The notes: generated by a model from the letters alone, not told the origin. Counted from the whole stretch's first letter, positions 26,152 through 38,213 are shown. The stretch is 61,192 bases of DNA, filler included, from Fonticula-like sp. SCN 57-25 (GCA_001724245.1; 10 parts of 10 records of this genome joined end to end with filler, not necessarily neighbours in it), one strand, 5' to 3'. Numbers and translations are program-made.

Positions 26152-26211
26152 AGAATAGATATGAAGAAAGAAAGCAGCCACTATAAAGACCGTGATTGGC
26201 TACCTGACGCT

Positions 26212-29200
26212 CTAGAGGTCCGTCTGGGACGATTCGGCGCGCTCCGCATCATCAGGCAGCGGGAACTCTGCCTCCATCTCGGTCTGGTTGGCGGCGAGGC
26301 GCGAGTACTTGTACTCTGCCTGGCGCTTCTGGCGCCACAGGAAGACAGTGAAGCCGGCGATGAGCAGAATGGCGCCAAAGATGAGCACAAAGACCCACCA
26401 GGGAAGGACGTCCTGGATCGTGGCAGGGAGCGCTGAAAGGAAAAAGGGTGAATAAAGGAGTTAAAGGGGGAAAGAATGATAGAATGACATGAGACATTAC
26501 ATGAGAAATAACACAAAATAATACAAAATGACATGAAAAGGTCAGAAATGACACAAAAACACCATAAAACACCACAAAATGACATAAAATGACATTAATA
26601 CACTACAAAAACGCACTTTTTCCCCTTTCTTCCCTCTTCCCTTTCCCTTCCTCCCCTATTCACCCCTTGCGTACGCGTGCAATCGTCGCCCTCATACCCC
26701 TCTGCGCACTCCCCGCACACCTCCCCTGCCCAGTTACTCGAGCACACACAAACCCCCGTCCCCTCCACGCCCATATCGCACGTGCCATGGTTCAAGCACG
26801 GCGTCCTCGCCCCCCCCGGGCACTCCTTCTCGCACACCTCCCCAAACATGCCCGACGCGCACTGCTCGCACGACTCGCCCGACCACCTCGTCGGGCACGT
26901 GCACGTCCCATCATCCTCGTCGCAGATACCCACACCATTGCACGCCACGCCGTTACTCTTGGCGCACTCCTTGCACGCTTCCTTTCTCGGCGGCGCCGGC
27001 GGCTCACCCGTGCACCTATTGATGCGCTGATATGAAACCGTGCGCGTCTCGTTGACACACGGCCCGCGCTCGAGCATGAAATCTTCCACCGTGCACGTCG
27101 GGCACGCAAACTGCGACCGCCACATGAAGAAATACTCGCACGTGCGCGGGACAAGCTCGGCAGTGTTGTTCCAGATGGGCGTCGGCTGGCCAACGCCGGC
27201 GTTCATGTCGCAGATGAGCGTCACGACAGTCTTGCGGGGGCGCGGGACGTTTCCATAAGAGCTCGCGCAGCCCTTTGAGCCTTCAGTGAGGTAGACAGTC
27301 AAACCCAGAGCGTCGTCGGGGTCGACATTGACGAGACCGAGAAGGGTTTCGTTGAGGGGGCCGTAGCCCATCACGTGGCCGAGGTCGACGGCGTAGCCGC
27401 GGTCAAAGATCTGCTGGCAGGACATGGAGGGGATGGCGTTGCCGTGGTCGTCGTAGCAGGTGGTGTTGGAGTGGTCACTGCTGCACATGTTGAGCCAGTA
27501 GGTGTGGCCGGAGCTGAAAAGGGGAGGGGAAAGTGGAAAGTGAGTGGAAAGTGATGAAAATCATGGAAAAAGACATAAAAGTATGATAAAATCATGAACA
27601 AGTATGATAAAAGTATGATAAAAACATGAACAAGTACATAAAAGTATGATAAAGAACAACCAAAAACACCATAAAAACAATAATAATCTACAATATACTA
27701 AAATAACCCTCAACAACCCACAAAAGACAATCCTTCTTGTCTTCCAATAACGTACTTGTCGACACCCGCAAAGTGCATTGTCTCTGGGCTATACAGCACA
27801 TTCAAGTCATACTCATGATGCGAAATCGCTACCCAATCACCGTCAGCCACCCCTCACTTCCACCAATCACAAGCGAGCAGCGTACAGACAGGCNGCACCG
27901 CATGCAATATACTCGGTCGAGTTTGCACTGTCGGTGAAGAAGCCGTCGGGCACGTCGAGGCAGAGGCCGCCTTCGGTCGGGTTGTACTGGCCGGGCGGGC
28001 AGGGCGTGCAGGCGGAGGCGCCGGTGAGGGAGGAGAAGCCGGCGGGGCACTTGGCGCAGGAGGCGGCGGCGCCGGTATCAAGATTGTTGATACTGTGGAA
28101 GGGAAGAAGAAAAGGAAGGGAAAAGAAGGAAAGGGAAGAGAAAATGAATGGGAAACAGGGGAAAAAGAACGAAAAATGAAGGAAAAAAGGGCAACAAAAG
28201 TCATAAAGACAAAAATTAGACACAAAAAAATCAAAAAACCACCAAAAAGACAACAATAATACACAAAATCCACTTGTTAGCCAATTTAAAAACAACCCAT
28301 ATTTTCGCACCGAATGGAAAAGATCTTTGCGTGGTTGTTGACATTGTACGGCAACGCCGCCTGCCTGTACGAGAACGTGATCAAGTAGCGACCCGGCGTG
28401 CGCAGCTGCAGCTTGGACGGCACCTCGGACGAGTACGTGTTGCGCAGGATGCTCGTGTAGGGCTCAATCTCGTCGTCGAGGTTGTCGTACGAGGCGTACA
28501 AGAGGCAGGCGCTCTGGCCAGTCACGCTATGGAACAAAGGGTGAGTAAGGGGAAGTGGGAAAAGAGAGGGGAGAAAGGGTAGAAATAGAGATACACAAAG
28601 TACATCAGAGTAGAAGAGTATAACAAAGTGGCATACAGAACAGAGATACAGAGACAAAAAGTATTAAAAACAATTCATAATCACAGAGACACAGACATAC
28701 AATGACACAAAATTATACAATGATACACATACACATACTCATACTCATACTCATACTCATACTCATACTCATATTAATACTCATACACATACACATACAT
28801 CACCATACACATACACATACTCATACTCATACTCATACTCATACTCATACTCATCATCAACAACAGTCAATCATCAATGATCATCATGAACAACACACAC
28901 AGATATCAACAAACTAAACAAATATCTCAATTGACGTACGCGCAGTTGAGCTGGTAGACGAAATCGACGACCGACGCAGTCACAACATTCACATTAAAGC
29001 TGACACGCGCGTCCATGTAACCACCCGCGCTGTAGGGCGACTTCATGTACTTGCCGCGCGCGAGCCACCCGCTGCTCTCGCAGCTGCCGTCGCAGCTCGT
29101 CTCAAAGGAAGAGGGAAGGGACGACCAGCGGGTGTAGGAGAGGCCCTTGCTGGCAAAGGTGCCAGGGGTGCAGGCGTCGCACTTGTTGGTGGCCTTGTTG

Positions 29201-36700: not shown

Positions 36701-36998
36701 GAGCGAAGGCGTTCGTAGAGTTCTTGCCCGCCAAATTTGGCGCCAGCTGCACATCGGCATGTCATCAGTGAATCGTCATCGGAATCACGGGAATCATCAG
36801 GATCAAAAGGGGATGATGCGCACCAGAGTCGCTTTTCTCGCCAGATGCGCTTGGCTTGACGCAAAAGTCGTACAGCGCGGTGTAGTAGAGCATAAACTCT
36901 TTGTAGGGGATGTCGCGGTCATAGTGCTGCAGGACGCGGTCGATGCCGGGGCGAGCCGTGCTCCATGCCTGCTCGAGATCCGCGCTGCGCGATGCCAT
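33709..36998 (-). CDS. CUL1: Cullin-1-like protein, spliced
   Basis: [76 protein letters not shown]; neddylation domain EDRKLLIQAAIVRVMK..IKKCIDILIEKEY. Confidence 0.9.
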
Positions 36999-38213
36999 CG
37001 CCGACACGATCACGCCGCAGACGTCGGAATAGGACGCGTACTTGGGGGGATGGGGGGATGAGGTGGCGGGATGCGCGGCGGGGGGGCACGAGAGGGATGA
37101 GGAGAGCGGCGGGATGCACGGGAAGGATGCGGCAGGTGCGACGACAGAGGTGGGGCGCGGCGACGGCGGAGGGTCGAGGCGCGTGTTTCGCGGCTGGGAA
37201 AGAGAAAAAAAGTGCGCGGGAAAAGAGAAAAAGAAAGGGAAAAAGGGTCAGAAATGTGCGTCATCGGGGGATGCCGGAGGAGAAAGACACGAAAAAGAAG
37301 AGGCAAAGGAAGGATTATAACAGAAAACATACGGGGCGCGTGAACAGAGTGCGAAGGCAGCTCATTCGCGGCGCTCGCCGGGCATGCGGACCGCAAAAGA
37401 ACACACGAAAAAGAAGCGAATCGCCCTGCACGACACGATACGTCGGCGCAAAAGGGCACTTTTCGCCCCTGCGGCCGCCACGGCACACCCCACGAAACAA
37501 CACTCACACGCACAACACGAGCGATTCCCCTTGCCTTGGGCCACGCCAAGCAAACGGCATATTCAAAAGCCCCTTCTTTTGCCCGCCAACGGACGCACGT
37601 ACCTATTAACTGAGATGGGCCGCTTACGTGGGATCCCCTTTTGCCCGCGAAAGGGAGGGGGTTGCGAAAGCGGGAAAGCGAGGGCGAATCAAGCGCCAAC
37701 GCTTTAATTGAATAAAGCGGTTGGGAAAAGGACGCAGAGAGGATGCTCGGCGGCCAAAGGCGAGCAGAGCGAGTGACGATAGAGAGAGCGACGGGTGGTC
37801 GGCTGCAGAGTGCGCTGATGCCAAAAATGAGCTCAGTTGACGCGGCAGCGCTCCAAGTCGGTTTGGTTGGTTTCGTAGGTTTCAGGTCGGTTTTGGTCCG
37901 TCTTTGGTCGGTCTCGGACAATTTGTGTCACAATTAAGTGCCCGCAGACGTGTTTTTCAAGTGCAATTGTATGTAAAGTAAGTGAACTAGGTGCTCCTAT
38001 TGTACACAAAGTACTTTACACTTTTTAAAGCTCCAAAAAATGACAAAAGATCAGCATTCGGCAGATTCCCGCGCGATCTTTCGCCGACCGGCATCGATCA
38101 CATGCCTGTCACAGCCCTGTGACCCAAACAAACCAGCACATTCCATCCGGCTTGTTGGTGGTCTTTCGGTGGGCCGAGGCATCGACAAGGATCCCGAGCC
38201 GAACGACGGCGCC

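Follow-up and report, generated by a model that had tools for sequence, protein, structure and literature searches.

Mirror-image zones of C and G depletion flanking long introns and spacers in a Fonticula-like microbial eukaryote

Genes and the skew flip in coding sequence

The window, i.e. the whole 61,192-base stretch of DNA analysed here (Fonticula-like sp. SCN 57-25, GCA_001724245.1), is a series of ten contigs of 5-9 kb, joined end to end by N44-TTAATTAATTAA-N44 linkers; gene adjacency across the linkers is meaningless for this reason. The studied region, 26152-37150, comprises the contig 26152-31957 and most of the contig 32058-38590, with one artificial joint (31958-32057, N44-TTAATTAATTAA-N44) inside and another (26052-26151) just ahead of its start. 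It contains an ELAPOR-like gene (26212-30790, minus strand; open model of 8 + 2 exons with EGF, CIMR-like and ephrin-receptor-like Pfam domains), the C-terminal part of a CPSF_A/DDB1-like gene (32059-33255, plus strand; exon 32059-32329 truncated by the contig end, terminal exon 32723-33255; Pfam PF03178, E 2e-16) and a cullin-1 gene (33709-36998, minus strand) with five coding exons (36998-36824, 36746-36499, 36161-35072, 34713-34601 and 34353-33709) in an open 756-codon model. All three models were built from the sequence alone, read open and yield the expected Pfam families; the cullin-1 model is supported by tblastn against fungal cullins and by Pfam. The subject of this report is a reversal of GC skew in these genes: the sense strand runs from C-rich to G-rich along the exons and turns back from G-rich to C-rich across long introns and some intergenic spacers.

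The initial annotation had placed such a change near 32190 in the first DDB1-like exon, and the third-position GC skew there indeed climbs along the exon (first third -0.85, last third +0.70); 32058, which had been taken as the start of this exon, is a contig end, and the region of the claim straddles the joint at 31958-32057. The same polarity, proposed for the cullin and ELAPOR-like exons, is borne out by the third-position skew of each: -0.73 to +0.47 in cullin exon 2, -0.52 to +0.33 in exon 3, -0.60 to +0.74 in exon 5 (the last), and -0.69 to +0.33 in the 839-nt ELAPOR-like exon 27513-26675. Exon 2 of the CPSF_A/DDB1-like gene rises from -0.82 to +0.83. Terminal exons, up to the side of the untranslated region (UTR), thus flip as had been described, and with +0.83 and +0.74 they reach values equal to those of internal exons. 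The codons switch from CTC/CGC/GCC/GAC to TTG/AGG/GCG/GAT, and the amino acids shift in part; first and second codon positions and amino-acid usage move in the same direction as the third positions.

The pattern is real, strong and far beyond chance. Local GC content correlates with skew change at 0.66 (contig 26152-31957) and 0.52 (contig 32058-38590), against maxima of 0.31 and 0.36 in 200 block shuffles of the two contigs. Two further contigs correlate at 0.44 and 0.42, so that four of the ten beat every block shuffle and the other six do not; the maximum among 49 background eukaryotic cullin loci from metagenomes is 0.37. At synonymous sites, Fisher tests give p = 5e-29 (four-fold C versus G), 2e-9 (two-fold C/T) and 8e-6 (two-fold G/A).

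An origin by chance, assembly or binning artefact or library damage is therefore hardly credible. The window is a concatenated metagenome bin, and only the four contigs just named beat all shuffles, which would suit an artefact. Against it, no flip interrupts a reading frame, and the genes encode conserved proteins; CTC to TTG and CGC to AGG are not transitions of the damage type; and the shuffle, synonymous-site and intron-class statistics rule out chance. Pieces of the sequence also recur in contigs of four other runs (two of which, X3 and X4, give identical tables and are perhaps one data set), including a strain that diverges by 2-4%.

The pattern is organised in units that each extend from one long intron or spacer to the next. 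The synonymous switching of the initial annotation stands with this, but not the exon as its unit. Long introns (218-413 nt) have a more G-rich 100-nt exon flank upstream than downstream in 13 of 13 cases (mean skews +0.23 and -0.33), versus 3 of 11 among short introns (46-77 nt; means -0.13 and -0.08; Mann-Whitney p 2.5e-5). These figures derive from about 20 kb of patterned sequence. Introns of the contigs 15026-20422 and 20523-26051 were placed by eye (in the latter as GTNCG...YAG, with no formal check of frame), and the short set combines five introns from frame-checked models with six placed by eye. Averaged over the long introns, C makes up 6% of the first 100 bases (skew +0.64 to +0.69), while G makes up 6% of the last 50 (skew -0.73).

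Exon zones fade within about 150-200 nt when measured over all sites and averaged over the long introns, and the mirror-image zones around spacers reach about 150-400 bp. Across single long exons the skew climbs almost linearly, and in 8 of 14 units C gives way to G at 150-260 nt from the start of the unit. Short introns inside a C-rich or G-rich zone of the contig 20523-26051 share the composition of that zone, and exons bordered by short introns only stay C-rich from end to end. Likewise, the 5' third of the ELAPOR-like gene, with four short introns, has no flip, while its 3' part has long introns and C-to-G units; gene ends that follow only short introns (contig 15026-20422; 31609-31893) lack a G-rich zone.

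Each zone is depleted of one letter, C upstream and G downstream of long introns. Baseline exons have four-fold sites with C 82, G 40, T 15 and A 6, and two-fold ratios C:T of 87:16 and G:A of 30:3. Over the 200 nt that precede a long intron or the end of a gene, the four-fold counts are C 64, G 142, T 36 and A 19, with C:T at 99:94 and G:A unchanged (113:12); in the 200 nt after a long intron they are C 185, G 37, T 33 and A 18, with G:A at 31:21 and C:T unchanged (110:22). A model that depletes C alone (4.25-fold) reaches a log-likelihood of -299.9 upstream, compared with -297.5 for the saturated model, and one that depletes G alone (2.5-fold) reaches -265.3 downstream, compared with -264.6. 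Because this one-letter depletion fits nearly as well as saturation, the apparent swap of C and G is a renormalisation after the loss of one letter, and the remaining three bases hold their relative proportions within each zone. At four-fold sites, pure deamination was rejected: C-to-T only gives -326.8 versus -299.9, G-to-A only -268.9 versus -265.3, and the C-to-T model predicts 0.29 T, 0.14 being observed. Since both models fit worse, simple deamination is not the whole cause.

Long introns and some spacers as helically phased DNA

Degenerate tandem repeats make up the long introns in the manner of a mosaic; of the 61 rows from Tandem Repeats Finder, 38 list a period of 10, 11, 20, 21, 31 or 32. 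Four long introns of the ELAPOR-like gene, all on the minus strand, lie at 26433-26674 (242 nt, GTACG...CAG, the 5' part free of C and the 3' part free of G; phasing power 25.7, reached by 0 of 200 shuffles), 27514-27755 (242 nt, power 20.0), 28093-28310 (218 nt, GTGCG...CAG, power 12.4) and 29256-29484 (229 nt, power 18.8). A fifth, 28527-28939 (413 nt, power 9.0), carries an (ATACTC)n array on the plus strand. The exon upstream of the intron 27514-27755 is putative, and the part 27885-27514 may hide a micro-exon. The long intron of the DDB1-like gene (32330-32722, plus strand) has 393 nt, borders GTACG...TAG and a power of 22.3. Those of the cullin gene are on the minus strand: 34354-34600 (247 nt) is built almost wholly of 10-, 20- and 31-nt repeats, with a power of 26.8 for the segment 34358-35031, which includes the next intron and the small exon; 34714-35071 (358 nt) has a (GGGAAA)n tract at its start; and 36162-36498 (337 nt) has a power of 24.9. 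Four further long introns, on the plus strand outside the studied region, were set by eye in the contig 20523-26051 (20690-21041, 21488-21708, 23881-24144 and 24657-24903); the C-to-G units between them contain short introns.

In the 13 long introns the autocorrelation of AA/TT peaks at lags of 10-11 (z 12), 20-21, 31 and 42, and the strongest period is exactly 10.5 bp, one helical repeat of DNA (periodogram power 8.65; shuffle mean 1.3, maximum 2.4). Exons have no 10.5-bp AA/TT signal in either analysis and show the codon period only. Clear examples of phasing are 34374-34549, 32435-32620 and 27552-27653. In the contigs 26152-31957 and 32058-38590, each of the eight intronic AT-rich segments shows a power of 9-27, which none of 200 shuffles reaches; in the whole window, phasing is significant at the 1% level or better for 14 of 48 AT-rich segments, and phasing power correlates with flip size over the 48 (Spearman 0.43, p 0.002). 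Long introns and some intergenic spacers thus form a special class of DNA, AT-rich, composed of 10-11-nt repeats and with A/T tracts in helical phase.

Intergenic segments, judged as such from open reading frames, behave in part alike. In contigs 3-6, four of eight flip; among these, phasing reaches the 1% level or better in two and the 5% level in one. None of the four non-flipping segments is phased. The spacer between the convergent 3' ends of the DDB1-like and cullin genes (33256-33708) is GA-rich and free of C on its left, CT-rich and G-poor on its right. It repeats the G-to-C layout of the long introns, though no single mRNA spans it. The phasing power of the segment 33208-33833 is 6.2, reached by 5% of the shuffles. 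At the centre of the spacer a 28-nt repeat occurs in 3.3 copies with 95% matches (33546-33635).

In their phasing, the long introns resemble the periodic An/Tn clusters (PATCs; PMC4947018) of Caenorhabditis elegans. A 2026 preprint (10.64898/2026.08.08.743475) describes PATCs as intronic DNA derived from minisatellites, with a 10-bp period and intrinsic curvature, which disturbs the order of nucleosomes and bears the mark of a mutational bias coupled to transcription. Germline-expressed host genes, protection from silencing and a Helitron minisatellite origin are further traits of PATCs. Both are long, intronic, minisatellite-like and AT-rich, with A/T tracts at the helical repeat, here 10.5 bp. 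As in PATCs, AA/TT is periodic at about 10 bp over at least 100 bp (8.65 versus a shuffle maximum of 2.4), and the phased DNA is mainly intronic (8 of 8 intronic segments; two intergenic ones at 1% or better). PATCs are known from animals, however, whereas the host here is a microbial eukaryote, and the available text reports no zones of G or C exclusion in the exons that flank them.

AAAGTGG is enriched over the window (32 matches versus 8.2 expected) and stands on the plus strand in the left, G-rich parts of spacers, with its complement in the C-rich zones to the right (e.g. 29280-29337, 32352-32382 and 34383-34409). A central motif that two cullin introns appeared by eye to share has a single match at up to three mismatches.

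Long introns might be copies of one mobile element family, introner-like or minisatellite-bearing, the pattern arriving with the insertion. Among 78 intron pairs, 15 have a blastn match, some co-linear, the best at 62.6 bits (reversed controls 5, block-shuffled controls 2-6); the enriched AAAGTGG lies at spacer edges, and intron length varies between strains. But the reversed control yields up to 55.4 bits, so that the similarity is mostly one of low complexity; long-intron borders show neither target-site duplications nor terminal repeats; and an insertion cannot produce a skew of 150-400 nt in conserved coding sequence of the cullin and DDB1-like genes. We consider such an origin improbable.

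RNA pairing, splicing and base composition

The initial annotation had pointed to complementary ends of long introns, and had offered pairing in the RNA as one of two explanations. The 9-mer AGTGGGAAG at 32367-32375 and its reverse complement CTTCCCACT at 32737-32745 are positioned as it gave them, but CTTCCCACT sits in exon 2 of the DDB1-like gene, which starts at 32723, and not in the intron. The pair extends to 14 nt at 86% across the DDB1-like intron. The ends are complementary in composition; a specific structure is not supported, and the 9-mer is a low-complexity match of GA to CT.

Sequence-specific stems between intron ends or exon halves would unite splice sites in the manner of euglenid non-conventional introns (PMC3935182) or of teleost introns with complementary repeats, whose ends pair. 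The 9-mer pair and the GA/CT tracts over cullin exon 3 could be taken for such stems. When the 200-nt arm around each 5' splice site was cofolded with the arm around each 3' splice site of the 13 long introns, cognate pairs gained -30.4 and non-cognate pairs -30.5 kcal/mol (permutation p 0.51), with -28.1 kcal/mol for mononucleotide-shuffled arms; the rank of the cognate partner spreads from 0 to 12 of 13. For ten units, the first and last 120 nt gain -16.6 kcal/mol both as cognate and as non-cognate pairs (p 0.48). The longest inverted repeats are low-complexity tracts of GA versus CT (25-40 nt, 70-84%), and they bridge cullin exon 3 rather than an intron. By the yardstick of the initial annotation itself, cognate ends pairing no better than mismatched or shuffled ones, sequence-specific pairing fails, and we regard it as very improbable. 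As in end-pairing introns, the 5' side is G-rich, the 3' side C-rich and the arms can pair in bulk; the long introns here differ in having no cognate specificity and in their borders, which are canonical GT-AG in all introns examined and not of the euglenid type (GTNCG...YAG in 24 of 24). We propose that the compositional complementarity is a by-product without specific structure. Arms of unlike kind do attract each other more strongly than arms of like kind (5'/3' -30 kcal/mol versus 5'/5' -13 and 3'/3' -8), and a register-free compositional 'velcro' between the zones may exist.

A composition code linked to splicing is a close rival of the DNA-level reading given below, and we hold it possible, though we do not prefer it. 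Selection would keep the two zones since the splice sites of long introns cannot pair over a short distance. The G-free zone, from a distant branch point over the 3' splice site into the next exon, would be unstructured, without AG or GU and pyrimidine-rich; the C-free zone, from the upstream exon over the 5' splice site to the branch point, would bar decoys of the GUNCG donor or of C-containing branch sites. The zones may zip without fixed register, or may bind G-rich- and C-rich-specific proteins that mark unit ends.

The dependence on intron length (13 of 13 versus 3 of 11, p 2.5e-5), together with the GTNCG donors in 24 of 24 introns, agrees with such a code, as does the stronger interaction of 5' with 3' arms. 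Within introns the flip keeps to a point some 110 nt ahead of the 3' splice site and is followed by 72-209 nt free of AG in 11 of the 13 long introns, with motifs that we take to be candidate branch sites right after it. Depletion of G halves the predicted folding at the 3' splice site (-15.4 versus -28.5 kcal/mol, p 5e-4), leaving this site unstructured. The four-fold equilibrium is as expected if one letter is weakly selected against. The lack of a G-rich zone at gene ends preceded by short introns alone points the same way, and so does the G-to-C flip of a fungal cullin locus (L041, described below), which falls on the 5' splice sites of short introns that are poor in G.

Several results do not follow from such a code. 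Depletion of C gives no significantly lower folding at the 5' splice site (-23.6 versus -25.6 kcal/mol). AG is not avoided in the intron halves beyond the depletion of G: observed/expected AG is 0.86, versus 0.72 for its reverse-complement counterpart CT, in a set of 14 segments of which two have ends off by one base and one (22531-22726) has an unverified acceptor; there is thus no motif-specific avoidance past letter depletion. G-rich zones at terminal exons and 3' UTRs and the mirror layout of the convergent-gene spacer are left unexplained, as are the 10.5-bp phasing, which is helical for DNA and not of 11-12 nt, and its tie to flipping. A flip in conserved coding sequence of cullin exon 3 lies away from known intron positions.

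Zones of 150-400 nt also far exceed known splice-enhancer skews. Known exon-end skews are purine-rich enhancers at both ends, over tens of nucleotides; here the same purine skew at both ends is not found. Codon and amino-acid usage related to splicing is reported to vary with the distance to the intron, and more strongly with long introns (PMC3787667, PMC4476162). The synonymous and amino-acid usage observed here likewise depends on intron distance and size, but with opposite polarity at the two ends, over 150-400 nt and reaching into introns, UTRs and an intergenic spacer. If selection on RNA keeps the zones, they would form an unusually extensive code of exon and intron definition, with hundreds of synonymous sites per exon, and would show how a spliceosome tuned to 50-nt introns handles introns of 200-400 nt.

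The flip in cullin exon 3 is abrupt, from G-rich to C-rich, at about 35505 (within 35480-35530, minus strand), in conserved coding sequence that is free of introns there. Its position, residue ~218, matches none of the homologue introns found within cullin exon 3 (~101, ~199, ~234, ~285 and ~328), and as the nearest of these are at ~199 and ~234, the reading as the footprint of a lost conserved intron was rejected. The flip may be the footprint of a lost element.

A proposed DNA-level pressure, its likenesses and other strains

The reading that we favour, with a probability of roughly 0.4, is a strand-asymmetric pressure at the level of DNA that spreads outward from the spacers. It is the second explanation of the initial annotation, a DNA-level or chromatin asymmetry centred on AT-rich spacers, which gains support from the convergent-gene spacer, the mirror-image exclusion and the phasing, short of proof. 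In its favour are the mirror-image layout, its occurrence at an intergenic spacer and in terminal exons, zones that ignore exon borders, a sharp jump followed by a gradient, and the phasing; the mutational bias coupled to transcription that is reported for the PATCs of C. elegans also agrees with it. The zones would be the imprint of a pressure that starts at the phased elements and runs outward over a variable distance, which would leave a sharp jump at the spacer and a near-linear gradient over the unit. On both sides, the strand whose 3' end faces the spacer is the one poor in C. The pressure might arise from recurrent breaks followed by 5'-to-3' resection, from polymerases that stall at a barrier of topology or chromatin, or from polar repair; on general grounds, the sign of the polarity would fit a loss of C from the 3' tails of resection, or from the non-template strand of polymerases nearing the spacer. 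Ordinary splicing constraints would lie on top, making the sense strand rich in T and keeping a long tract ahead of the 3' splice site free of AG, and the DNA-level reading can absorb the splicing features in this way.

Two kinds of system have a comparable shape or sign. The replication 'N-domains' of mammals and the origin/terminus skew of bacteria combine a sharp jump at fixed sites with a near-linear gradient between them. The shape here is the same, as from a bidirectional process with fixed starts and variable ends, but the scale is ~0.3-1 kb instead of 100 kb to megabases, one letter is excluded per zone, and the jump is downward (G to C), opposite to that of an origin. The spacer jump being downward and the units 0.2-1.1 kb long, the units are not skew domains of the replication type. 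Replication origins in the spacers, or divergent cryptic transcription from them, with the usual sign of a G-rich leading or sense strand, were rejected, as they would give the opposite polarity. Strand-coordinated clusters of C/G mutations flank double-strand breaks (kataegis, resection), as single somatic or experimental events. Their sign is that observed here, the strand that ends 3' losing C on each side, by C-to-G besides C-to-T; the zones here differ in being an equilibrium reached in evolution at many sites and tolerated by coding sequence. In human genes, GC skew and R-loops mark both the 5' and the 3' end (PMC3787257). A positive sense-strand skew at gene 3' ends is common to both; here, by contrast, the 5' ends of genes and units and the 5' UTRs are negative, the reverse of CpG-island promoters, and the pattern repeats at every long intron within genes.

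A number of observations weigh against the DNA-level reading. Four flipping spacers of the contig 20523-26051 have powers of 1.9-4.4 and are not significantly phased, one phased segment (22856-23018) flips in reverse and another (60045-60199) not at all. The intron flip lies 112 ± 47 nt from the 3' splice site (correlation with length -0.19) and 178 ± 90 nt from the 5' site (correlation with length 0.85), so that it is not tied to the intron centre. On the sense strand, T outnumbers A in both halves of the introns (A 0.235/T 0.415 in the first, A 0.16/T 0.48 in the second), and the spacers themselves are therefore not mirror-symmetric. Nor does the C-to-G switch keep to the midpoint of the unit; it falls at 0.29-0.47 of the unit length in 9 of 14. 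A mutational process must convert C to all three other bases, or else there is selection against C, and the four-fold equilibrium is exactly that expected under weak selection. The fungal cullin locus L041 has the polarity with G-poor introns of 58-112 nt only and no long spacer. It is above all this locus, the unphased flipping spacers and the rejected pure deamination that weaken the reading, and the process itself is a candidate only.

The DNA-level reading and the composition code are close rivals and not mutually exclusive, and neither covers everything. An RNA-level explanation covers the length dependence, the anchoring to the 3' splice site, its unstructured state and the selection-like equilibrium, but not the phasing or the intergenic and terminal zones. 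More doubtful than either is a wider version of the DNA-level reading in which phased elements of the PATC type are the start or barrier sites of a bidirectional, strand-specific DNA transaction that writes replication-like skew domains at the scale of exons. Taken together with this, and unlikely to the same degree, codon choice and in part amino-acid choice would be set by the distance to the nearest phased element, flips inside exons would mark lost elements, and the grammar would have arisen in at least two unrelated lineages of microbial eukaryotes.

If the zones are driven by mutation or chromatin, the mechanics of intron DNA would decide which synonymous codons the adjacent exons use, at a resolution below the kilobase, a confounder that analyses of codon bias, gene finders and substitution models ignore, and PATC-like DNA would be known beyond animals. 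On either reading, skew sign and 10.5-bp phasing together are a marker, from sequence only, for long introns, orientation-independent boundaries and possibly lost introns in uncultured eukaryotes. Among the papers returned by searches on skew, strand asymmetry, exon ends, pairing of intron ends and codon usage, none describes in its title or the opening of its abstract an alternating exclusion of C and G at the scale of exons; the mirror-image pattern looks undescribed.

Runs from bioreactors, wastewater and aquatic samples, and 'fungus metagenome' runs, contain nearly identical sequence; none is recorded as RNA, and the four that were compared consist of DNA contigs with low, patchy cover. 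In the strain of run X2, which is 2-4% divergent, the DDB1-like intron is 150 nt shorter (joint 32394 to 32545), and long introns therefore change length quickly. A perfect in-frame tandem duplication of 33 nt in cullin exon 4 (34621-34686, minus strand), which repeats 11 residues, is missing in the same strain.

Apart from its own protein, the closest homologues of the cullin are at most 53% identical and come from fungi and animals; 57 metagenome cullin loci reach at most 56% identity over the full length. Among 43 long cullin exon segments from these loci, a flip is present only in L041, L040, L036, L025, L012, L035, L030 and L037, the other 35 having none, and the flipping group is 36-44% identical to the query. 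L041 comes from a fungus of an unrelated soil lineage; its glycogen phosphorylase shares 76% identity with the enzymes of several ascomycete classes. In its cullin (locus 5824-9971, validated five-exon model) two long exons flip in all four bases, with A+C first and G+T second; the third positions change from A31 C47 G9 T7 to A9 C13 G41 T32 in one, and from A25 C39 G10 T16 to A16 C9 G46 T20 in the other. Its exons of 150-310 nt do not flip, and an intron-free reading frame of 1 kb passes through two skew cycles. As its long exons flip, the polarity is not unique to the organism of the window, and a long spacer is not needed for it in the L041 lineage.

The remaining features concern the window as a whole. 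The nine linkers are identical, 100 nt long (N44, the 12-nt six-frame stop spacer TTAATTAATTAA and N44), and are located at 5971-6070, 14926-15025, 20423-20522, 26052-26151, 31958-32057, 38591-38690, 43744-43843, 50616-50715 and 55796-55895. The unusual donor consensus GTNCG is present in 24 of 24 introns examined between 15026 and 38590, as GTACG or GTGCG and once as GTTCG, and it links the contigs 15026-20422 through 32058-38590; GTACG occurs 156 times in the window versus 70.6 expected. A perfect 43-nt tandem duplication (24581-24667) across an exon-intron border results in twin GTACG donors at 24614 and 24657, 43 nt apart. Upstream of the cullin coding exons, 37196-37602 (minus strand) is a candidate 5'-UTR intron of ~55% GC with the G-then-C order, a GTACG at 37602 and a polypyrimidine tract with CAG near 37196. 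G-quadruplex motifs number only three in the window and are no general feature. An Rfam scan of the window detects three tRNAs only, and no intronic RNA genes. Two of the tRNA genes are 86-nt copies with equal Rfam scores, seemingly identical and 1.2 kb apart (15031-15116 and 16242-16327), and judging from their length they presumably hold an intron.

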